DNA from: a virus
Direction: 5' to 3' (one strand)
IMG/VR virus record: IMGVR_UViG_3300045988_076381
DNA: 64,000 nt
Part shown: piece by piece, positions 3,473-64,000 of the stretch
Layout of the letters: the number at the start of each line of letters is the position of its first letter
How positions within the stretch are numbered: position 1 is the first letter of the stretch
Program-made: the position numbers and the translations under genes
Notes under the pieces: model-generated
Database searches by the model: none
What the model was told of the DNA's origin: nothing
Seen by the model: only the letters and a program-made list of their open reading frames with translations

Positions 3473-4809
3473 CTATTTTCTTATATTTTCATATAAGTTA
3501 GACTATATCATTAACTTGTTATAAGTTTATTCAATATATTTAAACACAAACCCTTTACAATGTGAAGCAGTTCCTTTAAGAACCTTGCTAACATTAGCAT
3601 ATTGTTTTCTACATTCCCTAACAGTATCAAATGTTTCTAATAGATTTCCTTCAAAATCATATCTTCCTACTTTTCTTTTTTTACATGGATTGAAATTTTT
3701 GGGAATTTCTAATTTATCTACTTTCTCCCAAGACCAAAAGTATCCACCATAACTTTGATTTAGATTTATAGCATTAGATAATCTATTTTGTTTTAAATTA
3801 CAAAATTCCTTAGCTTCTTTAGAATTTTTAAAACTACGTAAAAAATTACCTTCTAAATCATACTGATAGATAGGGTCATTACTTCTTTTTCTTTCTTGAG
3901 ATTTTATTGGATAAACATCAAATTTTCTATCGGAAATATAATATTTAGATATTTTAGTTCCTAATTTTACAGCTTTCTGTATTGAACTAAGATTAACATC
4001 TAAGTATCTAGCTGTATCAGACATAGATTTAAATTCCATGAAAAATACTCCTTTAGAAGTATATAAATAAGTTGATTTCTTTTGTAAAATAGGTTTGTTA
4101 GACAGATCTAGTTTATCAACTTTTATATCAGACCAATAAAATTCTCCACTCATACTTCCATTCAATACTGCACGCCCAATTGCAGCTTCATGAATATGAA
4201 TATGATCAGATGCCTCTTTAATACTATTAAAAGATCGTAAATAGTTTCCGGATAAAGAATACTGGTATATAATTTTATTTAATAATGGAGGAGTATCTCC
4301 GCCTAATGTAATATTATATGTATCAGATCTTCCAATGAAATTTTCATTTACTAAAAATCTTTCAATATTTTCTGCTTCTTCTCTTGTATTACATATAAAT
4401 AATGTAACTCTAGAGAAAGCATCAAATCCGTATTTCTTAACAGCACTCTGAAAAGGAGTTTTTGGATGTAATATACTAGATGGTTTATATATATTTACCC
4501 CATTTCCCAAATATCCATCAAATTTATCAGGATTCTCTGTTTCGTGTATTCCAATATAAATTTTTCTGTTTTTATTATTTATCGTTAGGTATACTATAGT
4601 TTTCATATATTGTGTTTTTACTTATACATTAAGTTATTTCCCATTTCGGAAGTAGAACTTCCTACGTCTATCCAGACTAGTCGTTGAACCCAATTTTGGA
4701 GTTTACATAAGTCTTACATATCCCAAAACCTTGGCTGCTGATTAGCATGTAATATTTATATTATTTAGCTTTCCAGCAATTAGAGAAATTTATTTTTCTG
4801 CATATCACT
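3473..4809 (-). mobile_element. group I intron D carrying a GIY-YIG gene
   Basis: P at 4771-4781, Q at 4734-4743, R at 4678-4689, then ORF 3527..4606, S at 3500-3509, GNRA-capped hairpin. Ends at G3473. Confidence 0.75.
3527..4606 (-). CDS. GIY-YIG homing endonuclease (intron-encoded)
   Basis: N-terminal IVYLTINNKNRKIYIGIHET...GYLGNG...EAENIERFLV (GIY-YIG core). C-terminal repeats YQYxLxGNxLRSFxSxKEA are typical DNA-binding modules of I-TevI/Seg-like enzymes. Paralog of 6465..7547. Confidence 0.8.
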   Translation of the reverse strand: MKTIVYLTINNKNRKIYIGIHETENPDKFDGYLGNGVNIYKPSSILHPKTPFQSAVKKYGFDAFSRVTLFICNTREEAENIERFLVNENFIGRSDTYNITLGGDTPPLLNKIIYQYSLSGNYLRSFNSIKEASDHIHIHEAAIGRAVLNGSMSGEFYWSDIKVDKLDLSNKPILQKKSTYLYTSKGVFFMEFKSMSDTARYLDVNLSSIQKAVKLGTKISKYYISDRKFDVYPIKSQERKRSNDPIYQYDLEGNFLRSFKNSKEAKEFCNLKQNRLSNAINLNQSYGGYFWSWEKVDKLEIPKNFNPCKKRKVGRYDFEGNLLETFDTVRECRKQYANVSKVLKGTASHCKGFVFKYIE

Positions 4810-6431: not shown

Positions 6432-7701
6432 CCTATTCTATTTAAAGAACTTAGACTATATCATTTACTTATTAGTATGATATTTAAAGATATAATCTTT
6501 ATAATATCTATCCCCCATCTGGATATTCTTTAATTTATTTGATGGGATATTGTATTTTTCTCTTACTTCTTTTATAGTATTTAAAGTCTCTATATAATTC
6601 CCAAATTTATCATACACATCAATTATCATTCCATTAGAATAACATTTTTGTGGAACTTTAGATACTTCTGTAGTAGATATGTAATAATCCTTATACCATC
6701 CCTCGTTATAAGATAATATATTCTGAATTTTAGCCCATGAATGAAGATTTATAACCTTCATTACTTCTTTCCCTTTAAATCTTCCTATATAATTTCCTTC
6801 TTTATCATATACATAATAAATAAGATTCTTACAACTTATCCTAGCCTTCGGAATAAATTCATCTACTAACTTCTTAGATATATAATATTGATTCTGTACT
6901 AGAGACTGATTTTTAATAGCTTTACTTATATCTAATATTCCTATATATTCAGCACATTCCTTTTCTGATTGAAACTCATTTAAGAGCTTCCCTTTTTTAG
7001 AATATAAATATACAGAAATAGGTGGATTAGATTTCTTACAATATTTAATAACATCTATCTCTGGTTCTAATGCCCAATAAGAATTAAGAAATTCACATTT
7101 CTTATCTATAGCATATTGAAATTTTTTAGGAGATTGTCCGTAAAAATCAAATACTTCTAAAGAATATTCCCATTTCTTTTGTAACTCTCCAGATGTATTA
7201 AATTGATAAATTGTTTTATATAAATCTGTATTTAAATAATTATAAGTATGATCCGCTTTTAAATACTCAGTATTTATTAACTCAGATTCTTTATTATACG
7301 CCTCTTCTAGAGTATCATAAATATATAAAGTAGTTCTCTCAAATGCTTTTGTTCCATACTTTTTAACAGCATATTGAAATGGAGTTTTTGGGTACATATA
7401 AGTACTTGGTTGATCTATATAAACTCCACACCCTAAATATCCATCAAAAGTATTAGGATCATTTGTCTGATGCACTCCAATATAAATTTTATTTAACTCT
7501 CCAACTTTAGATTTTAAATTTTTAGTAAGATATACAATATATTTCATAAGTAATTCAGTTTTTTAATCTTATTTAAATAATAAGATTTACAGGTTTCCCC
7601 TAGTCGTTGAACACTGTCTTCATCAAGACCATGCTGCTGATTATCTCTAGTAGCAGTAGAGAGTTCCCAGCAATTTAAAGAATTTATTGTGAACCTCATT
7701 G
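6432..7701 (-). mobile_element. group I intron A carrying a GIY-YIG gene
   Basis: P1 GUGAAU/GUUCAC with U7702.G7694. P at 7664-7675, Q at 7633-7642, R at 7601-7612, ORF 6465..7547, S at 6453-6462. Ends at G6432. Confidence 0.8.
6465..7547 (-). CDS. GIY-YIG homing endonuclease (intron-encoded)
   Basis: IVYLTKNLKSKVGELNKIYIGVHQT...GYLGCG...EAYNKESELI plus repeated C-terminal DNA-binding modules. Paralog of 3527..4606. Confidence 0.8.
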   Translation of the reverse strand: MKYIVYLTKNLKSKVGELNKIYIGVHQTNDPNTFDGYLGCGVYIDQPSTYMYPKTPFQYAVKKYGTKAFERTTLYIYDTLEEAYNKESELINTEYLKADHTYNYLNTDLYKTIYQFNTSGELQKKWEYSLEVFDFYGQSPKKFQYAIDKKCEFLNSYWALEPEIDVIKYCKKSNPPISVYLYSKKGKLLNEFQSEKECAEYIGILDISKAIKNQSLVQNQYYISKKLVDEFIPKARISCKNLIYYVYDKEGNYIGRFKGKEVMKVINLHSWAKIQNILSYNEGWYKDYYISTTEVSKVPQKCYSNGMIIDVYDKFGNYIETLNTIKEVREKYNIPSNKLKNIQMGDRYYKDYIFKYHTNK

Positions 7702-10812: not shown

Positions 10813-11586
10813 TTAAGCGTCTATTGTTAAATATTCTATAATCATTCTGGGATTATTGTAATCTATATTACCTTCTTGTATACCTCCGATTTGTAGTCCA
10901 ATAGAATCTAATGGGATAGCATTAACATTTCCAAAATCCCATAAAAGTGCTCTTATACTATTTGATTCATTGATATGATATAACTTATTATTTATATATT
11001 CTATTGCGAAAATATTAGCTTTTCCCATATCTCCTCCATATATTATAGGATGATTAATTGGATCAGCATTTCCATTAACGTCTTGTACTACTATTTTAAT
11101 TGTTGGGTTAGTAGTATCTGTACTTCTTAATATACTTAAATACTTTCTATCATTAGTATCTGATACTAAAAGAGTTAATAAACAATTATAAGAATTTTCA
11201 GAACTTCCAATAGCAGTAATAGTATATCTAAAAGAAACTCTCCAATTATTTTTTCGATTCTCGAATAGATTAGCTATTAATATAGATGAATAATCTTTCA
11301 TAAACATGGCTCCAGTGCTACTATGCGAAATTGCTCCTACTTTTCGAATAACTGAAGTAACAGAAGATGTAGTTGTATTAGATGCTCCATTATATAAAAA
11401 GATCCGAGATAATATTTTAATTATATCATCATCTGCTGGAAAATCATATAAACTATAACTACTAAGTGGAGTAGGATCGGCTCCAGAGAGAATAGCTCCA
11501 TCTTTATGTATAAAATTCATATTTGTACTACTAGGAGATCCTAATCTATTAGCAGCATCTTTAAAAGTTAAAAAATCCTTACTCAT
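10813..11586 (-). CDS. hypothetical tail-fibre-module protein
   Basis: 257-aa ORF, last gene of the fibre/RBD cassette. Confidence 0.5.
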   Translation of the reverse strand: MSKDFLTFKDAANRLGSPSSTNMNFIHKDGAILSGADPTPLSSYSLYDFPADDDIIKILSRIFLYNGASNTTTSSVTSVIRKVGAISHSSTGAMFMKDYSSILIANLFENRKNNWRVSFRYTITAIGSSENSYNCLLTLLVSDTNDRKYLSILRSTDTTNPTIKIVVQDVNGNADPINHPIIYGGDMGKANIFAIEYINNKLYHINESNSIRALLWDFGNVNAIPLDSIGLQIGGIQEGNIDYNNPRMIIEYLTIDA

Positions 11587-11590
11587 ATTT

Positions 11591-11905
11591 CTAAGTTTTA
11601 GTTCCGAATACTATCCAATCTATAGTTTTTGGATCTTTTCCTCCACTATACAATTCTATATATGTCTTTGTTACACCCATAACATTACAAGAATATCCAG
11701 CTTCATTATTTCCCCGAAATGAACATACAGCAGTTCTTGGTATATAATCTCCTTGTAACGATACTCTAGTTTCAGTATGTCCCTCACATAAAGTACTTCC
11801 TATCTCAAATACCAAAGGACCTAATGTCATGACTACATGACCTGGTCTAATTATATCATGTGTAGTCTCTAATATATTATCTAATTCCGTTATAAACTCC
11901 GCCAT
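11591..11905 (-). CDS. small receptor-binding-domain-like protein, paralog c
   Basis: MAEFITE... N-terminus, RGNNEAGY and GGKDPKTIDWIVFG motifs shared with 11943, 12224 and 12670. Resembles the C-terminal tip domain of tail fibres. Confidence 0.6.
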   Translation of the reverse strand: MAEFITELDNILETTHDIIRPGHVVMTLGPLVFEIGSTLCEGHTETRVSLQGDYIPRTAVCSFRGNNEAGYSCNVMGVTKTYIELYSGGKDPKTIDWIVFGTKT

Positions 11906-11942
11906 AATTGATTATTTACTGATAATCCTATTATTAAAAATG

Positions 11943-12221
11943 TTACAGTTTTATCATCTTTTCCCCCAGAGAAAATGTTACTCCTGTAGTATTTAAACTA
12001 GATATACTTATAGCATATCCTTGTTCATCATTATTTTTTAATGAAGCCATTCCGGTAATTATCCCACTAAATCCTTTTAATGGTACAGAAACAACATCAT
12101 ACCCAGGACAAGTAGTAGTTCCATAAGCGATTCGTAGTCCTTTATAATTTATATATGTAACAGGATCTACCATTTCCACGGAATAGTCCTCTAAATTATC
12201 TTCTGTTAAAAATTCAGCCAT
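11943..12221 (-). CDS. small receptor-binding-domain-like protein, paralog b (C-terminus displaced to -1 frame)
   Basis: MAEFLTE..., LKNNDEQGY. The annotated frame ends ...SLGEKMIKL*, but the family motif GGKDDKTVTFLIIG is encoded in the -1 frame from the G5A4 run (11963-11967) to the stop at 11890. Confidence 0.55.
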   Translation of the reverse strand: MAEFLTEDNLEDYSVEMVDPVTYINYKGLRIAYGTTTCPGYDVVSVPLKGFSGIITGMASLKNNDEQGYAISISSLNTTGVTFSLGEKMIKL

Positions 12222-12223
12222 AT

Positions 12224-12517
12224 TTAATCACTTTCTCCTATTATTAAATAATAAAATTCTTTAGGATCTTTCCCTCCGAGTATGAAAATAGCCGAGGTAT
12301 TAGTATAAGAGGATAAATTTACTGTATAACCTGCTTCATTATTATTTTTTAAACAACAGAATACTCCATATACTGATTTAAATCCGGAATAAGTAATTGT
12401 TATACCTCTACTAGTTATAGAAGAATATCCTCCAACCATTCTGAGTCCTAAACCTTCAATCCCTCCAGATCCAGTAGAATCTAAAGCTCTATCGTCTACA
12501 GTTAGATATTCTGCCAT
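12224..12517 (-). CDS. small receptor-binding-domain-like protein, paralog a
   Basis: MAEYLTV..., LKNNNEAGY, GGKDPKEFYYLIIG. Confidence 0.6.
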   Translation of the reverse strand: MAEYLTVDDRALDSTGSGGIEGLGLRMVGGYSSITSRGITITYSGFKSVYGVFCCLKNNNEAGYTVNLSSYTNTSAIFILGGKDPKEFYYLIIGESD

Positions 12518-12518
12518 A

Positions 12519-12659
12519 TTATATTATTTTAGCTCTTTGTTTTAATCGATGTACATCATCTTCTAAAGATTGGATTTTGTCTTTTATTATATTTAATTCT
12601 AAGGAATCTTTTTTAATAAAGATTCTATGTAAAAATGTTTTAATTTTATTTAGTAACAT
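12519..12659 (-). CDS. short coiled-coil ORF (46 aa)
   Basis: ATG at 12659, MLLNKIKTFLHRIF...LEDDVHRLKQRAKII. Its stop overlaps the ATG of 12517. Below the track's size cutoff. Confidence 0.3.
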   Translation of the reverse strand: MLLNKIKTFLHRIFIKKDSLELNIIKDKIQSLEDDVHRLKQRAKII

Positions 12660-12669
12660 ATTAATTTAA

Positions 12670-13008
12670 TTAATATCCTATAGCTAACCAAAAAAATTCA
12701 CTTCTGGTATTTACTGGAGGAGTTCCTACTAATTCTACTGTACATGAGGAATTTGTGAAGGATTTGATGGTTAAAACATCTCCTTTAGACCAATGACCAT
12801 AATAATTATTAGGAGTGAGTTGCACTACACAGCATTTAGTAGGAAATGTTTTTGGATACGATACTGTTGCAGTCATACTTCCAGTATTAAAGTTACTAAG
12901 TCCTGACTGAATTAATATCCCCCCCCCTTGTAAGATATCTGCTCTTGTAGGAGCTGCTTTAGAGAATAAGGTATTTAAATTATCTCTGGTTATAAATTCC
13001 TTTGCCAT
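12670..13008 (-). CDS. small receptor-binding-domain-like protein, paralog d (contains G9 tract)
   Basis: MAKEFITRDNL..., YPKTFPTKCCVV..., FFWLAIGY C-terminus typical of fibre tip domains. In-frame G9 (plus-strand C9 at 12919-12927) encodes GGG. Confidence 0.6.
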   Translation of the reverse strand: MAKEFITRDNLNTLFSKAAPTRADILQGGGILIQSGLSNFNTGSMTATVSYPKTFPTKCCVVQLTPNNYYGHWSKGDVLTIKSFTNSSCTVELVGTPPVNTRSEFFWLAIGY

Positions 13009-13038
13009 TTATTAATATTTTATTTAATTGTTATATAT

Positions 13039-13911
13039 TTATGTTAATTTTTTATATGTATTTCCACTTCTAATTAATTCTGTCCACCATATATCTCCTT
13101 TATAATTGATGAGTTCTGGAAGAATTCCTACAAGTCCAAACTCTTTTACCTCACTGTGGGCATAAATATCAAGTAAATAAGGATATGATTTTTGGTTAGG
13201 TATAGACATACTTATACATTTATTACTTCCATATATTAAACATCTCACAAAAAACCTTGTAATAACTTCTCTAGAAGGAATAGGATATGTTTGTTGCCAT
13301 GACGTGCGCCAATCCCAAGTATTACTAATTGTTATATAATTCTGACCATTCTCATCTATATACCATGTACTGTACCGACCTGTATCTTCTTTAGTAAGAA
13401 CTTGAGAATACATAGTAGGACTAACATCCTTTCCTTTAGTATAAGAACATGAATCGTTAGTCTCATTTACATATAATCTAGCTACACTCCTATACGTTTC
13501 TCCAACATCAAAATACGCATAATGATAATTATCAATTTTCTCTACATAAAAAAAAGATCTTGGGTATTTAAAATTACTACCAGTATAAGCAGCTATAGCA
13601 GTGAGAGTATTATTAGATGTATTTAATTTATATATTCTGAATTGCGTATCAGCATCTGGAGAAGATCCACTACAACAAAATAGATAATTACCTGATAAAG
13701 CCGAAGTAGCTATATTATACCAATATCCAGTAGAACCACCCAGAGATATAGGTGTAGTAACCATTGTACCATTAACCACAACTCCGAAAGTGATATGTTT
13801 AAAATCGGAAGCTGCATAAACAAACGGAATTCTTTCATCATCAGGATTTGCTACAACACCTATACGACAATAGACACTTCTGTAGAAAGAAAATCGTTTA
13901 AAACCTGCATA
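13039..13911 (-). CDS. fibre-module protein, frame open about 44 codons upstream of its first start codon
   Basis: Track ORF 13039..13779 uses a GTG. The same frame is open back to 13911 with no ATG/GTG/TTG and overlaps ORF 13860..14045 in the -1 frame. Confidence 0.55.
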   Translation of the reverse strand, partial: YAGFKRFSFYRSVYCRIGVVANPDDERIPFVYAASDFKHITFGVVVNGTMVTTPISLGGSTGYWYNIATSALSGNYLFCCSGSSPDADTQFRIYKLNTSNNTLTAIAAYTGSNFKYPRSFFYVEKIDNYHYAYFDVGETYRSVARLYVNETNDSCSYTKGKDVSPTMYSQVLTKEDTGRYSTWYIDENGQNYITISNTWDWRTSWQQTYPIPSREVITRFFVRCLIYGSNKCISMSIPNQKSYPYLLDIYAHSEVKEFGLVGILPELINYKGDIWWTELIRSGNTYKKLT

Positions 13912-42799: not shown

Positions 42800-43828
42800 T
42801 TATATTAAATCTATATTATTTAAGTTATTATATATATTCACAATCCTTTCCTTAAATTCTTTAATAGATAAATTACTCTTCATTACATTAATCTTATCCT
42901 CACAAATAACAATATTTCCTTTTATATATCCTTTATTAGAATCTATCCTATCCACAGAAGGTCTATAATCTTTTGAAAACGGGATTCCAGAATAATAACA
43001 TTTCCCCTCTTGTGCTTTGTACATCTCATTTAAATATTCTTCTGTAATATCCAATTCCTTTTTTATATTATTTTTATTACTATAATTATATTTTCTATAC
43101 TCACAATTTCTTTTACATTTATCTAATAACCACTTTCCTATATTTTCCCATTTCTTTTCTTCCTCTTCATCTCGTGCACACTTACTACATAAGAAATTTC
43201 TATGCTTATCAAATTTAGAAGGATCTGTTTCTCCACATTTTATACATAATTTATCAGAGTGTTTATATATAACCCTTTCTTCAGTATTCTCACCTTTTAA
43301 TAATTTAGAATTAACTTGATATCCTTTAGGTGTTTTTAAAAGAGTGTACTTAGGATGTGAGATTTTTAAAGTTATATCTTTTGTATTCTTAAGTATTCCA
43401 AATAAACCTTCTGTATTAAATTCTTTTAATCTTCTTGTAATATTATAAATAGTTCCAATAACACAATCTATATTATTATCATCTAAAATTCGTTTTAATT
43501 CTCTAGCTGGAATTTTATCATATGATGGTAGAATGTTATAAAACATTAGAATGAAAGCTTTGTTGTTTAATGTTAGATCTGGATTAGTTAAAAAATCTGG
43601 ACAAGATAATGATGTATGAATTTTAAATCTTGGAGCGAAGCCATTGCTGGAACAATCTTCAATATCTCCAGATGAAATTAAATGTTTTGTGGATACTTTT
43701 ATTACTTCATCACTTATACCGTAAGTAGATAATTGGGAAGATAAAATACTTGCAATTTCGTCTTCTTCTTTAAATGCATTAAGGATTCTTAATACTACTT
43801 CTAATTTAAAATTTTCAATTGTTTTCAT
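42800..43828 (-). CDS. free-standing HNH-type endonuclease
   Basis: 342 aa. CxxC pairs (CIKCGE...CSKCARD) and C-terminal CYYSG...SVDRIDSNKGYIKGNIVICEDKINVMKS. Confidence 0.6.
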   Translation of the reverse strand: MKTIENFKLEVVLRILNAFKEEDEIASILSSQLSTYGISDEVIKVSTKHLISSGDIEDCSSNGFAPRFKIHTSLSCPDFLTNPDLTLNNKAFILMFYNILPSYDKIPARELKRILDDNNIDCVIGTIYNITRRLKEFNTEGLFGILKNTKDITLKISHPKYTLLKTPKGYQVNSKLLKGENTEERVIYKHSDKLCIKCGETDPSKFDKHRNFLCSKCARDEEEEKKWENIGKWLLDKCKRNCEYRKYNYSNKNNIKKELDITEEYLNEMYKAQEGKCYYSGIPFSKDYRPSVDRIDSNKGYIKGNIVICEDKINVMKSNLSIKEFKERIVNIYNNLNNIDLI

Positions 43829-59008: not shown

Positions 59009-60177
59009 AAACTTTTGTCTGAAAGTATGGTAACATACAGGTGAATAGATCAAAATCGATGAAGTCTAATTTAGATAATATCGAGGTAAGTATGAATTTA
59101 AAGGATTCATACCACTGTAACGCGTAGGTGTTGAAACTATTAATTATTTATAAATTATATTTTTGCAGAAGAGATAATTGTTTTTATCGTGGAAGAATAT
59201 TAACTTTGTATTTATTACATTTTAATATTTAAATTCTTATGGATAAAAACAGAAAACTAGAATTTGAGGGAAAGATATTTCCTACGAATAATTGTGGCGA
59301 GCTAAAAATCATCGAATATAATGGAGCAACTAATGTAGTGGTGGAGTTTATTACTACTAAAACTATACATTCTACCACTATGAATAACATCAAGAAAGGA
59401 TCAGTATCCGATCCTATGTATCCAACAGTATATGGAATAGGATATATGGGTATAGGAGAGTATAAAAGTAGGACTGGGACTAGTCCTCAAACAACTTGCT
59501 ATAAACGATGGAAAGAAATTCTTAATCGATGCTATAATCCTAAATGTTCTGCTTATAAATTTTATGGAGGAAATGGAGCAATTATATGTGAAGAATGGAA
59601 AAATTTCCAAAATTTTGCATCTTGGTGGTATTCTAACTTTCCAAATTGGGAAGGAATTAAAATTGCTATAGATAAAGATTTATTATGTAAGGGAAATAAG
59701 GAATATTGTCCTGAATACTGCTGCTTTTTACCTCAAGAAATAAACGAAGCTCTTACTTTAAGAAAAAAGGAAAGAGGGGATTATCCAGTTGGAGTACGGT
59801 TAAAAGAAGGAAAAATTATTGCTCAAATTAATTACATGGGAAATAAAAAACATTTAGGAACATTTTCCACTGTTGAAGATGCTTTTGCAAAATATAAAAT
59901 AGAAAAGGAAAAGTGTATGAAAGAATATGCTGATAAATACAAAAATATACTTTCGGAGAGAGTGTATCAAGCATTATATAACTACACTATAAATATAGAT
60001 GATTAATAGAATAAAATATACCCAAGAGTGATCTACTCCTACAGGTAATGCTGAGGATGAAAATGTACGCTGAACCGTCTGATGATTAAATCAGAATATC
60101 TTTATTTACATCTTCAATAAAGTAAGGAGGAGACTCCCGGAAGTAAGAGATAAAAAACTCTTACGATAACAAAATTG
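59009..60177 (+). mobile_element. group I-like intron (terminase-intron family) carrying an AP2-domain gene
   Basis: P1 CAGAU/GUCUG with U59008.G59017. P2 GUAUG-GUAA-CAUAC. P3 UAGAUCA/UGAUCUA. J3/4 AAA. P4 UCGAUG/UAUCGA. 3' end GAUAACAAAAUUG like intron T2. Ends at G60177. Confidence 0.65.
59239..60006 (+). CDS. AP2-domain homing-endonuclease-like protein (intron-encoded)
   Basis: VGVRLKEGKIIAQINYMGNKKHLGTFSTVEDAFAKYKIEKEK is an AP2/ERF-type DNA-binding domain, common in phage HNH/AP2 homing endonucleases. I did not identify a catalytic motif. Confidence 0.6.
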   Translation: MDKNRKLEFEGKIFPTNNCGELKIIEYNGATNVVVEFITTKTIHSTTMNNIKKGSVSDPMYPTVYGIGYMGIGEYKSRTGTSPQTTCYKRWKEILNRCYNPKCSAYKFYGGNGAIICEEWKNFQNFASWWYSNFPNWEGIKIAIDKDLLCKGNKEYCPEYCCFLPQEINEALTLRKKERGDYPVGVRLKEGKIIAQINYMGNKKHLGTFSTVEDAFAKYKIEKEKCMKEYADKYKNILSERVYQALYNYTINIDD

Positions 60178-60359: not shown

Positions 60360-61004
60360 ATGTTAGTTCTAGATAATATTAATTCAGTCTCGGATGTAAT
60401 TACAAATTCCTCATCGGAATTATTTGTAATAAACGATAAAAATACTACATTAGACCATCTTAAGAATATAATCAATCCTATATTAGATGGTTATTATGAA
60501 CCATTTGTATTTAATTTAGATACGTTTAGAAAATGGGTAGAAAGTTCCGAAGAGGATAATTCTACGGATATAGACGCATGTTTTCAGACTATATACGACT
60601 GGTTCATTGATTTAGAGTGTCCTAGTGGTTTAACTTACTATATTAGGGATACTCTTTATAAGTTACGGTTAGAGGACTATATTAAATTAGAAAATAGTCT
60701 ACTTAAAGAATTATACGCGGAATTAATTAAAAAGTATGATACTAATTATTCCTCATATAAAGAAATTGAAGCTTTTCTTCAAACATATGATGAAGACAAA
60801 ATAAACAAAATCATAGACTATTTGCTAAATACAAATTTCGAATATGACATTCGAAAATTAAATGGAAAGATTATTCTCCTTTCCGAGGAGGAGAATTCCA
60901 TTTCATGTAGTAGAAAATTTAACCGCTCAGAATTTGCGGAAGATTCTGATGTATTTCAATGGCTTGAGCATAATTTTAATATTACATATTATCATTTAGG
61001 ATGA
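60360..61004 (+). CDS. TNSSSE-motif protein, paralog 1
   Basis: N-terminal INSVSDVITNSSSELFVI, shared with the next two genes. Confidence 0.55.
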   Translation: MLVLDNINSVSDVITNSSSELFVINDKNTTLDHLKNIINPILDGYYEPFVFNLDTFRKWVESSEEDNSTDIDACFQTIYDWFIDLECPSGLTYYIRDTLYKLRLEDYIKLENSLLKELYAELIKKYDTNYSSYKEIEAFLQTYDEDKINKIIDYLLNTNFEYDIRKLNGKIILLSEEENSISCSRKFNRSEFAEDSDVFQWLEHNFNITYYHLG

Positions 61005-61426
61005 GATTTAAAATACATTCAATATCAGATATTATAACAAACAGTAGTTCAGAAGTATTTCTTGTTTCTAAAGATAGTGAGATAAAGAATATAAAAGGAT
61101 TGCAAGAGAAACTGAATTTAGGAGACGTATCTGATTTACTAAAGTTTATACATACTTATAGTTGGGGTATAGATAAAGACTATAATTATGGAGATTTATG
61201 TATAACACTTGATCATATACGTGATATAACTAATGCTTTCAGTAACTACTTCAATGATAGTGACTGGGATGATAATATCTCAAAAATAGGTATATTACGT
61301 GATGAGATGTACAAAGTATTTGCTGAGAGTTTTAAAGATATAGTAGCTATAGTAATAGATAATGGCTATTATTATGAATTTATTGCAAATAATCCAAATT
61401 TAAAATATGAAAACTTTCCATATTAA
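61001..61426 (+). CDS. TNSSSE-motif protein, paralog 2
   Basis: IHSISDIITNSSSEVFLV. Overlaps both neighbours. Confidence 0.55.
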   Translation: MRFKIHSISDIITNSSSEVFLVSKDSEIKNIKGLQEKLNLGDVSDLLKFIHTYSWGIDKDYNYGDLCITLDHIRDITNAFSNYFNDSDWDDNISKIGILRDEMYKVFAESFKDIVAIVIDNGYYYEFIANNPNLKYENFPY

Positions 61427-61715
61427 AATTCATTCTATTTCAGATATTATTACTAATAGTAGTTCCGAGACCTTTTGTTTTATTTATAGTGAAGATATAT
61501 CTAAAGTATTAAAAGTATTATCTCCTTATTTTGGGAACTATGATGTTTTTGATGAATGTTGTGCACAAATATATGGTCCTTTTCAAGAAGGTATAGAGGA
61601 TCCTTATATTGAAATTAGATGTTCCGAAGATTATAGACCTTCGTTACTAGAAGAAGGATTAAGATATGTATTAGATAAAAATAATATTGATTATACAATA
61701 TCAAAAGAAGAATAA
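61407..61715 (+). CDS. TNSSSE-motif protein, paralog 3 (N-terminal part?)
   Basis: IHSISDIITNSSSETFCF. Only 102 aa versus 214 for paralog 1. Confidence 0.55.
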   Translation: MKTFHIKIHSISDIITNSSSETFCFIYSEDISKVLKVLSPYFGNYDVFDECCAQIYGPFQEGIEDPYIEIRCSEDYRPSLLEEGLRYVLDKNNIDYTISKEE

Positions 61716-62007: not shown

Positions 62008-62475
62008 ATGAAAGATTTTAAACACTTTGGAGTTAGGTTTAAAGGTATAAGTAGTTGTAATTATACCGCAATATGGAGTAATTTAATTACAATACGTCTT
62101 GGAGATAAAGAGATTAAAGAACTTCCAGCAGATAAAGCTGAGTTTTATGACGTTTCATTAGGAGATAAATGTGTTACTGGGAAATGTAATTTCTGCTTAG
62201 TACCAGAAACACATATACTTACTAATGAGGGTGATAAATATATAACAGACATAAAAACAGAAGACTTAGTGTTTTCTTACAATGAGTGTAGTGGAGATAT
62301 TGAGTTAAAAAAAGTAGACCAAGTATTTGAAAGAGTATATGAAGGAGAACTTATTGAAGTGGTTACAGAAATCGGAACTTTAAGACTGACTCCGAATCAT
62401 AAAATATATACTAGAAATAGAGGATGGATTGCAGCGTGTAATCTACAAGTGTCAGACGAATTGTTAGAATTTTAA
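62008..62475 (+). CDS. radical-SAM-like protein N-fragment fused to split-intein N-part
   Basis: Extein ...GDKCVTGKCNF, then CLVPETHILT (block A) ... LRLTPNHKIYT (block B) ... ELLEF*, about 93 aa of Hint N-half ending in a stop. Confidence 0.7.
   Translation: MKDFKHFGVRFKGISSCNYTAIWSNLITIRLGDKEIKELPADKAEFYDVSLGDKCVTGKCNFCLVPETHILTNEGDKYITDIKTEDLVFSYNECSGDIELKKVDQVFERVYEGELIEVVTEIGTLRLTPNHKIYTRNRGWIAACNLQVSDELLEF
62194..62472 (+). mobile_element. split intein, N-fragment (IntN)
   Basis: Starts at Cys63 (TGC 62194). Size and blocks A/B are comparable to DnaE-type IntN (about 100 aa). Confidence 0.65.
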
Positions 62476-62547
62476 TATCCGAAAAGTTGGAAGTATTAAA
62501 ATAGATTATTATTTTTGTATATAAAATAATAACTAATTTTAATACTT

Positions 62548-63669
62548 ATGAAAACATGTAAATATTGTGGATGTGATATATCCCACCTAAGAGCTAATGC
62601 TACCACTTGTGGATCGAGAGAATGTATAAATGCGTATAGAAGAGAACGTAAATCCAAACCTAAGGAGCCAAGAACTTGCGAAATTTGTGGAACGTCTATA
62701 GACGATCTTCCTGGACAAAGGAGAATTTGTAAAAATCCAGAATGTGAAGCGGAGCAAAAAAGAAGAAAATATGCACAGGCCTTAAAAGAAAAAATATGTA
62801 AAAAATGTGGAGATACTTTCCTTGGCACTTCTAAACAAACCTGTTGTGAAAACTGTAGAAAACATAAAGATATAACATTTAAAGTTATAGAACAGAAAGT
62901 AGTTTGTGAAGATTGTGGAGCCTTACTAAGGACCGAAAGTAAAAAAGTTAATGGAAAAACTAAGGAGATTATAGCAAAAGGAATGTGTGATGATTGTAAA
63001 CAAAAACATAGAGAGAAACTTAGTTTACAAATGAAAGAACATAATCCTATGTTTGATCCTGAGATAGTTAAAAAAACTTCGGAGACAAGACGATATAAGT
63101 ATCTACAAAAATGTGAAGAAGAAGAAAGGCTTCCTTATGTAAGAAAAGGATGTAAAGGTGAAACTAGGGAAGAAATGATTCAAAGAATGAAAGAACACAA
63201 TCCTATGTTTGATCCTGAAACTAGAGCAAAGGTCAGCAAAACTCTTAAAGAAAAAATTTTATCTGGAGAAATTATTTATGCTAAAGGTCCAGAACATCAT
63301 TTGTGGAAAGGTAATAGAAATTTTAATAAGGCAGTACGTATAGAATTAAGAAAATGGGTTAAAGAACAAATGGAAAAGGTTCATTATATATGCCAAAAAT
63401 GTGGGAAAACACGCACCGAATTACATGTACACCATTTACATCCATTAAGGGATATAATTTTGGATACTTTAAATAAAAATAATTTAACTATCATAGATAT
63501 AAATAGTATGGAGGGTTCAGAACAATATTTTGATATAATTAAACAAATAATTGAATATCATTATCAACATAATGATATCGGAATTGTTGTTTGTCCCCAA
63601 TGTCATAATGAACTAGATAGTTATTATAAAAGAAAAACTCATGAAAATAGTAAGTATAAAGAAAGTTAA
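62548..63669 (+). CDS. HNH homing endonuclease with zinc ribbons and NUMOD3-like repeats
   Basis: Four CxxC...CxxC ribbons, two KEHNPMFDPE repeats, C-terminal ELHVHHLHP...N...CPQCHNELD. Lies between the two intein halves. Confidence 0.75.
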   Translation: MKTCKYCGCDISHLRANATTCGSRECINAYRRERKSKPKEPRTCEICGTSIDDLPGQRRICKNPECEAEQKRRKYAQALKEKICKKCGDTFLGTSKQTCCENCRKHKDITFKVIEQKVVCEDCGALLRTESKKVNGKTKEIIAKGMCDDCKQKHREKLSLQMKEHNPMFDPEIVKKTSETRRYKYLQKCEEEERLPYVRKGCKGETREEMIQRMKEHNPMFDPETRAKVSKTLKEKILSGEIIYAKGPEHHLWKGNRNFNKAVRIELRKWVKEQMEKVHYICQKCGKTRTELHVHHLHPLRDIILDTLNKNNLTIIDINSMEGSEQYFDIIKQIIEYHYQHNDIGIVVCPQCHNELDSYYKRKTHENSKYKES

Positions 63670-64000
63670 TTATAATGGAAAGGTATATAATATTGGAGTG
63701 AGAGATAATAATAATTATTTTGCATCTAATATTTTAGTACATAACTGCTATGTATCTTCTAATCCAAATGGGGAGTATTATACTAATGTATGTGAAACAT
63801 GGAAGAAGTTTATTGCTACATTTGCTCCAGATAAGAAAGAAAAGAATATCACTATCACAGAAAAACCCTTTCAAATAGCGATTGGATCTGAAGGCTCTGC
63901 GGACGAGTCGCCGGAGTTCTGTGATTTCTTGGAAACTGTATATAATACTGGAGTAGTTCCTAATTATACTACTAACGGAGTAATTCTATCATATTATGAT
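63641..64000 (+). CDS. split-intein C-part (35 aa) fused to radical-SAM-like C-fragment (runs off window)
   Basis: ATG at 63641 (overlaps the HNH end): MKIVSIKKVNYNGKVYNIGVRDNNNYFASNILVHN|CYVSSNPNG.... HN-Cys+1 at 63740-63748. Not in the ORF track because no stop lies in the window. Confidence 0.65.
   Translation, partial: MKIVSIKKVNYNGKVYNIGVRDNNNYFASNILVHNCYVSSNPNGEYYTNVCETWKKFIATFAPDKKEKNITITEKPFQIAIGSEGSADESPEFCDFLETVYNTGVVPNYTTNGVILSYYD

Follow-up and report, generated by a model that had tools for sequence, protein, structure and literature searches.

Locus organization

The IMG/VR virus record IMGVR_UViG_3300045988_076381 was analyzed as a stretch of 64,000 nucleotides (nt), here called the window. 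At positions 62008-64000, on the plus strand, it carries a gene for a radical S-adenosylmethionine (SAM)-like enzyme that is very probably fractured by a split-intein cassette with a free-standing HNH homing endonuclease. Three open reading frames (ORFs) make up the locus: one for the N-extein and the N-terminal half of the intein (IntN), one for the HNH endonuclease, and one for the C-terminal half of the intein (IntC) and the C-extein. Their features are as follows.

62008..62193, plus strand: N-extein of the radical-SAM-like enzyme, 62 codons; colinear with residues 1 to 62 of uninterrupted alleles of 320 amino acids (aa)
62194..62475, plus strand: IntN, 93 codons plus TAA (62473-62475); PT-HINT match (1.4e-7), TIGR01445 above cutoff, Cys1 and block B TPNH
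62476..62547, plus strand: AT-rich spacer, 72 nt, 15% GC; three further in-frame TAA codons and a hairpin at 62491-62547
62548..63669, plus strand: free-standing HNH homing-endonuclease gene, 373 aa; phrog_1271 match (3.5e-16), conserved HNH core
63641..63745, plus strand: IntC, 35 codons, MKI...ILVHN; Intein_splicing match (4e-5), TIGR01443 above cutoff
63746..64000, plus strand: C-extein, first 85 of 258 codons, beginning with Cys+1; the remainder was read from contig L005
62194..63745, plus strand: putative mobile cassette (IntN, spacer, HNH gene, and IntC), 1,552 nt; its deletion restores a gene colinear with the empty alleles L009 to L011 and L022

The first ORF (62008-62475) encodes 155 aa, of which 62 belong to the N-extein and 93 to IntN, and it stops at the TAA at 62473. 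It reads ...DVSLGDKCVTGKCNF / CLVPETHILTNEG...LTPNHKIYTRNRGW...DELLEF, with an extein that ends in ...CVTGKCNF and an intein that starts with CLVPETHILT and contains TPNHKIYT. The in-frame stop before the third ORF is at 63616, and ATG 63641 is the only start codon to follow it; from there the ORF reads MKIVSIKKVNYNGKVYNIGVRDNNNYFASNILVHN / CYVSSNPNG... until it leaves the window at 64000. It overlaps the 3' end of the HNH gene by 29 nt in a different frame. A first-pass annotation, made from the window's letters and ORF list, had described this three-ORF layout and recommended extending the sequence past 64000. The layout was reproduced with the same ORFs, stops, 72-nt spacer, and 29-nt overlap, and contig L005, which is 100% identical to the window's last 11 kb, gave the full C ORF of 293 aa (35 of IntC and 258 of C-extein) at its positions 11094-11975. 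The remark that the HNH gene is GC-richer than its surroundings fared less well: the difference is marginal (30.6% GC in the HNH gene, 28.7% in the window, and 30-35% in the exteins).

The IntN and HNH ORFs share one reading frame, and the IntC ORF lies in another. The shared frame invites the explanation that the intein is in fact contiguous, with read-through, frameshifting, or an alternative code joining IntN, HNH, and IntC, and this idea also draws on three distant relatives (P0199, P0207, and P0235) that have IntN and HNH in one ORF. We reject it as very improbable because four in-frame TAA codons stand between IntN and HNH; to our knowledge, the stop codons that phages recode are TAG and TGA, not TAA, which counts against read-through as well. 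Moreover, IntC is in a different frame, and even in the fused relatives, IntC and the C-extein form a separate, overlapping ORF with a Met-Lys-Ile start. The first-pass annotation had also advised checking for an assembly artifact at 62473 and 63641, with the stop absent from the true sequence. Independent assemblies agree at both positions, and the stop is present. The same stops, spacer, and frames occur on at least 23 contigs, which come from many samples and were assembled by two pipelines, as well as in a second cassette lineage diverged by 3-5%. Nothing was found in favor of an assembly or sequencing artifact, and because these contigs are independent, we regard one as scarcely credible.

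The two intein halves

Each half of the intein is recognizable on its own. The N ORF alone matches PT-HINT above the curated cutoff (1.4e-7), and the 35-aa segment alone matches positions 122-155 of the 155 in Intein_splicing (4e-5). When fused, the halves clear the curated cutoffs of Intein_splicing (49.9 versus 35.8 bits), PT-HINT (44.4 versus 27.7), TIGR01445 (36.5 versus 24.5), and TIGR01443 (22.6 versus 15.6). A search of PDB sequences with the fused intein identified the NrdJ-1 split intein (8ubs) as the closest solved relative (E 2.1e-8), in an alignment that spans the split point (TIRCTPDHPVYTKNRGY... / ...NFFANDILVHN); matches at E<=1 also included the KlbA, RadA, and DnaX inteins. 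DnaE was absent from the matches at that threshold. The first-pass comparison with DnaE-type inteins thus holds for the general layout only (about 100 plus 35 aa, Cys1, and Cys+1), and among the known split inteins against which it had suggested alignment, NrdJ-1 is the nearest with a solved structure and is split at the same place.

An alignment of ten family members from different contigs, 43-54% identical, has the signature of a class 1 intein, namely, Cys1, block B T-x-x-H, a terminal His-Asn, and Cys+1. The corresponding residues here are C1, T66-P-N-H69, H127-N128, and C129 (Cys+1), and in all ten inteins C1, T66, H69, and the string L-V-H-N-C are invariant. The initial identification of the 35-aa segment as an IntC with a terminal His-Asn and Cys+1 is upheld by this invariant string, by TIGR01443, and by the match to the C-terminal end of Intein_splicing; the opposite outcome that had been contemplated, a segment devoid of Hint homology, is at odds with that last match. 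The halves also differ in charge: IntN is acidic (18 D/E and 9 K/R, net -9) and IntC is basic (5 K/R and 1 D/E, net +4). In the contiguous mini-inteins P0250, P0270, and P0292, the same halves are joined with 2-4 extra residues at the point occupied here by the stop, the HNH gene, and the new start. The element is of interest as a new natural Cys1/Cys+1 split intein (93 plus 35 aa) with an unusual block F, and it might find practical use in protein ligation.

The interrupted enzyme gene

The predicted spliced product has 62 plus 258 residues, or 320 aa and about 36-37 kDa, with the ligation point ...GKCNF-CYVSS.... The end of the N-extein (...C-VTGK-C-NF) supplies the first two Cys residues of an Fe-S cluster motif, and the third is Cys+1 of the C-extein. 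A search with the 320-aa product returned 824 homologues, and the joined exteins found uninterrupted ones that cover the junction. Eight of them (P0058 to P0065) are exactly 320 aa long, are 93-97% identical, and are encoded on phage contigs of about 160 kb that are syntenic. P0058, which is uninterrupted, reads ...GKCNFCYVSS..., the exact junction predicted, and so agrees with the first-pass proposal that joining the exteins rebuilds CVTGKCNF-CYVSS with a third Cys contributed by the C-extein. Once 62194-63745 (1,552 nt) is removed from the DNA, the window sequence aligns in frame and without gaps to the empty allele L009.

Because NCBIfam and Pfam scans of the spliced protein named no family, a fold comparison was needed. 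The AlphaFold model of P0058 (intein-free, 97% identical, built from a 43-sequence alignment) has a predicted local distance difference test (pLDDT) score of 92 and a predicted template modeling (pTM) score of 0.91. Its top PDB fold matches are SuiB, DesII, NifB, GDGT-MAS, EpeE, BlsE, and viperin (E 2e-9 to 1e-4), followed by PqqE and MoaA, so that the top matches are all radical-SAM enzymes; the top viral structure matches are all phage radical-SAM proteins. Many homologues that are 57-65% identical carry a precomputed Pfam Radical_SAM (PF04055) match. A family profile run against PDB sequences found only GDGT-MAS, at a marginal E of 0.086. On the basis of the homologues and the predicted fold, we confidently propose that the host is a radical-SAM-like enzyme. 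The first-pass assignment to this superfamily is in that sense sound, resting on the homologues' PF04055 matches and the P0058 fold, with no PF04055 match for the window protein itself.

The cluster motif has Cx4Cx2C spacing in the window and departs from the canonical CxxxCxxC. That departure, singled out in the first-pass annotation, is real but not peculiar to this gene, as about half of the family shares it: among full-length homologues, 62 have x4 and 51 the canonical x3. Other homologues have 5, 13, or 18 residues between the first and second cluster Cys, and P0165 carries a 48-residue non-intein insert there. This loop is unusually tolerant in the family.

The nuclease and its leader

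The 373-aa product of the middle ORF matches phrog_1271, "HNH endonuclease" (3.5e-16). It has a Cys-rich N terminus and, at its C-terminal end, an HNH core formed by C282xxC285, H295H296, and C349xxC352H353. Six of these residues (C282, C285, H295, H296, C349, and H353) do not vary across 21 relatives, and C352 is conserved in at least 90% of them; weak Pfam HNH matches occur in 13 of the 21 (best, 2.6e-4). The N-terminal part comprises four CxxC...CxxxxC/CxxC zinc-ribbon modules and two RMKxxNPMF repeats, which are invariant or nearly so in the same set. The gene had been described as HNH/NUMOD3/zinc-ribbon. The HNH identity (phrog_1271 and the core) and the zinc-ribbon-like modules stand, and NUMOD3 was not detected, with no Pfam match at E<=1 for the window protein and none among the 21 relatives; the two repeats, in full RMKxxNPMF-x-E-x-R-x-KVS, resemble NUMOD3 by eye only.

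The spacer that leads into this gene contains a hairpin of 57 nt at 62491-62547, which extends up to the HNH AUG. Its folding energy is -19 kcal/mol (z = -3.4), and 1 of 200 shuffles was as good. The close sibling L007 and four diverged lineages likewise have strong spacer hairpins that reach or include the AUG (z -3.0 to -5.7), and in the four diverged lineages the spacers are unrelated in sequence.

Occupied and empty alleles

An identical HNH protein is encoded on 23 contigs, L005 among them, that derive from a variety of samples and from two assembly sources, and it lies between the same two half-genes in 6/6 loci shown. In L001 to L006, the IntN, HNH, and IntC coding segments are identical in nucleotide sequence, with two mismatches in the noncoding spacer of L001, and the N-exteins around them differ by up to 6.5% and the C-exteins by up to 3.9%. 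The common empty allele, L009 to L011, reads ...AAATGCTCGTTT / TGTTATGTA... and differs from occupied alleles at positions -1, -4, -5, -6, -7, and +3. A second empty allele, L022 (encoding P0058), reads ...AAATGTAATTTT / TGCTATGTA... and differs from the flanks of the occupied L007 by 1 nt in 105. L006 carries the substitutions of the L009-like empty allele upstream of -82 and is donor-like from -81 to +9, which marks a short co-conversion tract. An identical cassette in diverged backbones, together with this mapped tract, would amount to direct population evidence of ongoing homing.

The second cassette lineage, represented by L007 and L008, differs from the first mostly by synonymous changes. 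The counts below are given as synonymous to nonsynonymous changes, with the ratio of nonsynonymous to synonymous polymorphism (pN/pS); the first three rows compare the two cassette lineages.

IntN: 7:1, pN/pS 0.04
HNH: 35:16, pN/pS 0.10
IntC: 2:1, pN/pS 0.11
C-extein of intein-bearing alleles: 26:12, pN/pS 0.12

All three cassette ORFs are under purifying selection. Because of the identical cassettes, the co-conversion tract, the empty sites, and this selection, we argue for an active homing element in a functional host gene, not a relic.

The C-extein shows further variation. A GC patch at 63884-63920 (37 nt, 62% GC in a 29% GC genome) recodes ...GSEGEPTESSSF..., as found in L001, L006, and L009, to ...GSEGSADESPEF... 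within the conserved GGE-like stretch. It begins a few nucleotides after QIAIG/S, the point of a second insertion in sibling contigs, and it assorts independently of the intein, being present in L002 to L004 and in the empty L022 and absent from L001 and L006. The patch could have been left by co-conversion, or it could be a recoding that confers resistance to a nuclease. The second interruption, after QIAIG, is found in L007 (11881-13377) and L014 (5965-6387). In L007, the insert is 1.5 kb long and holds a GIY-YIG ORF (12004-13209); it looks like a group I intron because a T closes the exon, a G closes the insert, and no start codon lies downstream. In L014, it is about 420 nt long and lacks any ORF, and the ORF that follows begins with an ATG of its own. 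Rfam detected no group I intron in the second interruption of either contig. Database proteins P0003, P0021, P0024, and P0250 end in ...FQIAIGE/G.

States of the intein at one site

Eight relatives of the HNH protein, 95-37% identical, were traced to their contigs. Each is flanked by a Hint-bearing N ORF of about 155 aa on one side and by a C ORF of about 281-337 aa on the other. The same radical-SAM family is cut at the same C-x-x/C point in 7/7 relatives with sequence; the context of the eighth, P0241, was judged from Pfam matches of its neighbors only, without DNA. The first-pass annotation had called the arrangement rare, a description that does not fit within this gene family.

Three-ORF relatives have spacers of 50-79 nt and overlaps of 29-41 nt, apart from L020, which has a 42-nt gap instead. 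In the two-ORF relatives P0199, P0207, and P0235, N-extein, IntN, and HNH are fused in frame into 563-573 aa, and IntC with the C-extein is a separate ORF that has its own conserved Met-Lys-Ile start and overlaps by 4-11 nt. The contigs with fused ORFs, which hold distant orthologues, are L012 (4001-5692), L013, and L014 (4001-5722). The result is a split intein with the nuclease on its N-terminal fragment, a state halfway between a free-standing nuclease and a nested one.

When the N ORF was searched exhaustively, 170 cluster representatives were returned at E<=1e-10, among them many fragments with IntN at their end, of about 150 aa and about 310 aa. P0250 has a contiguous mini-intein at the same site in the same radical-SAM family. 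P0270 and P0292 have contiguous mini-inteins in a second radical-SAM family, which has an extra N-domain and matches Pfam Radical_SAM above the cutoff. One intein family thus occurs at one site in four states: empty, contiguous mini-intein, three-ORF split, and IntN-HNH fusion with a separate IntC. They form a natural series in which the entry of nucleases into inteins and the origin of split inteins could be tested.

A model for the locus

We propose that the three ORFs are expressed from one strand, that the hairpin ending at the HNH AUG limits translation of the nuclease, and that translation of the IntC ORF, which begins within the 3' end of the HNH gene, may be coupled to that of HNH. The acidic IntN (-9) and the basic IntC (+4) would then associate and trans-splice by the class 1 route (Cys1, TxxH, His-Asn, and Cys+1), yielding ...GKCNF-CYVSS... 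and completing C-x4-C-x2-C. In a mixed infection, the HNH enzyme would cut intein-free alleles, and repair from the intein-bearing genome would copy the cassette in. We infer that trans-splicing restores the enzyme from the conserved catalytic residues and the purifying selection; homing of the cassette is likewise suggested by the comparison of alleles.

Several results weigh against this proposal. Block F Asp and His usually assist the intein splicing reaction. Here, the Asp position is Asn110, which is invariant in the family (NrdJ-1 has Asp), and the His position is Asn in the window, with His in L018, P0270, and P0292. A single-sequence AlphaFold model of the fused intein reached a pLDDT of only 34. 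The window's spliced protein has no Pfam Radical_SAM match at E<=1, and its GxxGEPT stretch is recoded to GSEGSADES. For the nuclease, the Pfam HNH match (0.006, 17.1 versus 21.4 bits) is under the gathering score, and the family profile found no solved HNH relative among PDB sequences, only zinc-ribbon noise. As for expression, no Shine-Dalgarno-like sequence precedes the HNH or IntC start, and a promoter/terminator scan was uninformative, with 12 promoter-like sites versus 12.4 expected.

Part of this evidence would suit a different explanation, in which the halves associate only, with the intein fragments as a noncovalent docking module that does not splice, or in which the enzyme is dead and the locus is a decaying relic of a nuclease-invaded intein. 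Both block F substitutions in this lineage favor it, as do the recoded GGE-like stretch and missing Pfam match of the window allele, and there is a precedent in Aeh1 nrdA, cited in PMC2677866 as fractured by a free-standing HNH gene without splicing. Nevertheless, all nucleophiles and the terminal His-Asn are unchanged even between lineages that share as little as 43% identity, and that set includes contiguous mini-inteins, without whose splicing there would be no host protein. The block F Asn is found in contiguous family members too. Moreover, selection on IntN, IntC, and both exteins is strongly purifying, and an unspliced intein of 128 residues would sit exactly at a ligand of the Fe-S cluster. 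We consequently judge docking or decay to be improbable and favor a split intein that splices in trans.

The position of the split raises a further possibility. The intein Cys1 and the extein Cys+1 both take the third Fe-S ligand position, and Cys-3 and Cys-8 lie just upstream; because Cys1 is at that position, the unspliced N-fragment carries a complete C-x4-C-x2-C that uses the intein nucleophile. By analogy with a known intein described below, a Cys-3/Cys1 disulfide, or cluster binding, might restrain trans-splicing and make maturation conditional on redox state or iron-sulfur supply. We offer this as a long shot. If true, the element would be a natural conditional split intein and not a purely selfish insert, and it would make the maturation of an oxygen-sensitive radical enzyme conditional.

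Phage context

The window encodes portal protein, large terminase, and baseplate and tail-fiber proteins, and sibling contigs encode a T4_Y16D domain protein. The T4-type late-promoter octamer TATAAATA occurs 53 times in the window, compared with 34.8 expected, and 0 of 100 shuffles reach 53. Because of this excess, the structural genes, and the T4_Y16D protein on siblings, the source fits a large tailed phage of about 160-165 kb. Neither the locus DNA nor the intein-free protein had a BLAST match in 50,697 deposited phage genomes, and so this phage has no close sequenced relative among them.

Directly upstream of the radical-SAM-like gene are three tandem paralogous ORFs (60360-61715; 214, 141, and 102 aa) with the start motif SD[IV]ITNSSSE and no Pfam family. 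A protein with this motif also lies upstream of the gene in the distant loci L015 to L017, and the fused N-domain of the second intein-bearing radical-SAM family starts with RLGxATNSSSxHS; pairwise BLAST between the upstream ORFs and that N-domain was not significant (E 3.1). These TNSSS proteins may be partners or substrates of the radical-SAM enzyme. Pfam matches among the neighboring ORFs are limited to Metallophos, ferritin-like, and cytidylyltransferase-like ones, which name no pathway.

Another free-standing HNH gene (59239-60006; phrog_953, 1e-60) is present in the window and L005 and is absent or replaced by small genes in siblings. The product of the ferritin-like gene beside it is 144 aa long in the window and 190 aa long in L001, L002, and L006. 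The region is a second nuclease-associated indel hot spot, 2 kb upstream. Further homing-endonuclease-like ORFs lie at 3527-4606, 6465-7547, and 42800-43828 (two phrog_314 and one endonuclease VII/HNH-like). Genes of this kind abound in the phage.

Relation to known systems

Dassa, London, Stoddard, Schueler-Furman, and Pietrokovski (2009; PMC2677866) described fractured genes in ocean metagenomes, including gp41-1, NrdJ-1, IMPDH-1, NrdA-2, DnaE, and others. In that study, hairpins were found in 15/16 nuclease leaders, and nuclease and IntC overlapped by 6-69 bp in 15 loci. The nucleases were GIY-YIG or Vsr-like only, with HNH merely predicted as able to fracture genes, and the hosts were eight DNA synthesis and repair enzymes. 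The present locus belongs to this class because its layout matches feature by feature, and the label "fractured gene" that the first-pass annotation gave it is apt: the intein halves, the intervening nuclease, the hairpin, the overlap, and a colinear rejoined enzyme are all present. Like those loci, it is of phage origin, is split at the canonical endonuclease insertion point, and has a hairpin in the nuclease leader and an IntC overlap (29 nt) within their range. A negative N half and a positive C half are shared with NrdJ-1, IMPDH-1, and NrdA-2. Unlike those loci, it has an HNH nuclease and a radical-SAM-like host that is cut inside the Fe-S cluster motif, and its full genomic setting is available along with population data, which show empty sites, co-conversion, and one and the same cassette in backbones that have diverged. 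NrdJ-1 (8ubs), itself from a fractured gene, is split at the same place; it differs in that similarity is only moderate, block F has the usual Asp and His, and the host and the nuclease are others.

Other systems share single aspects. In the Pyrococcus abyssi (Pab) MoaA intein, splicing is controlled by a native disulfide between Cys-3 and Cys1 (PMC3922620), and the C-x-x-C1 geometry recurs here as C-N-F-C1. Contiguous inteins in radical-SAM enzymes were already known, as evidenced by the NCBIfam family rSAM_Tes_intein. The Pab MoaA and Tes inteins differ from this one in being cis-splicing and archaeal and in having no free-standing nuclease. In phage Aeh1, the HNH gene mobE splits nrdA (Friedrich 2007; Gibb and Edgell; both as cited in PMC2677866). 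In the account given there, the parallel extends to a free-standing HNH gene that splits a phage enzyme gene, a regulatory hairpin in the leader, and a nuclease end that overlaps the downstream start, and the difference is that no intein is involved and the halves assemble noncovalently.

Nuclease-intein associations on record comprise in-frame HNH inteins, Vsr-like nucleases in split inteins, and out-of-frame nested nucleases. In-frame HNH inteins and out-of-frame nested nucleases have been described in actinobacteriophages (bioRxiv 10.1101/2025.01.02.630785). There, as here, HNH is linked to an intein, and the proposed origin is a free-standing nuclease invading an intein. Those inteins are contiguous, whereas the present one is split: three ORFs make it up here, and some relatives have an IntN-HNH fusion with a separate IntC ORF. 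In the open-access literature, we found no earlier fractured gene with an HNH nuclease and no split intein in a radical-SAM host, and an earlier description elsewhere is possible. The locus would extend the fractured-gene class to an HNH nuclease, as predicted in 2009, and to a host outside DNA metabolism that is cut inside a catalytic metal-binding motif.

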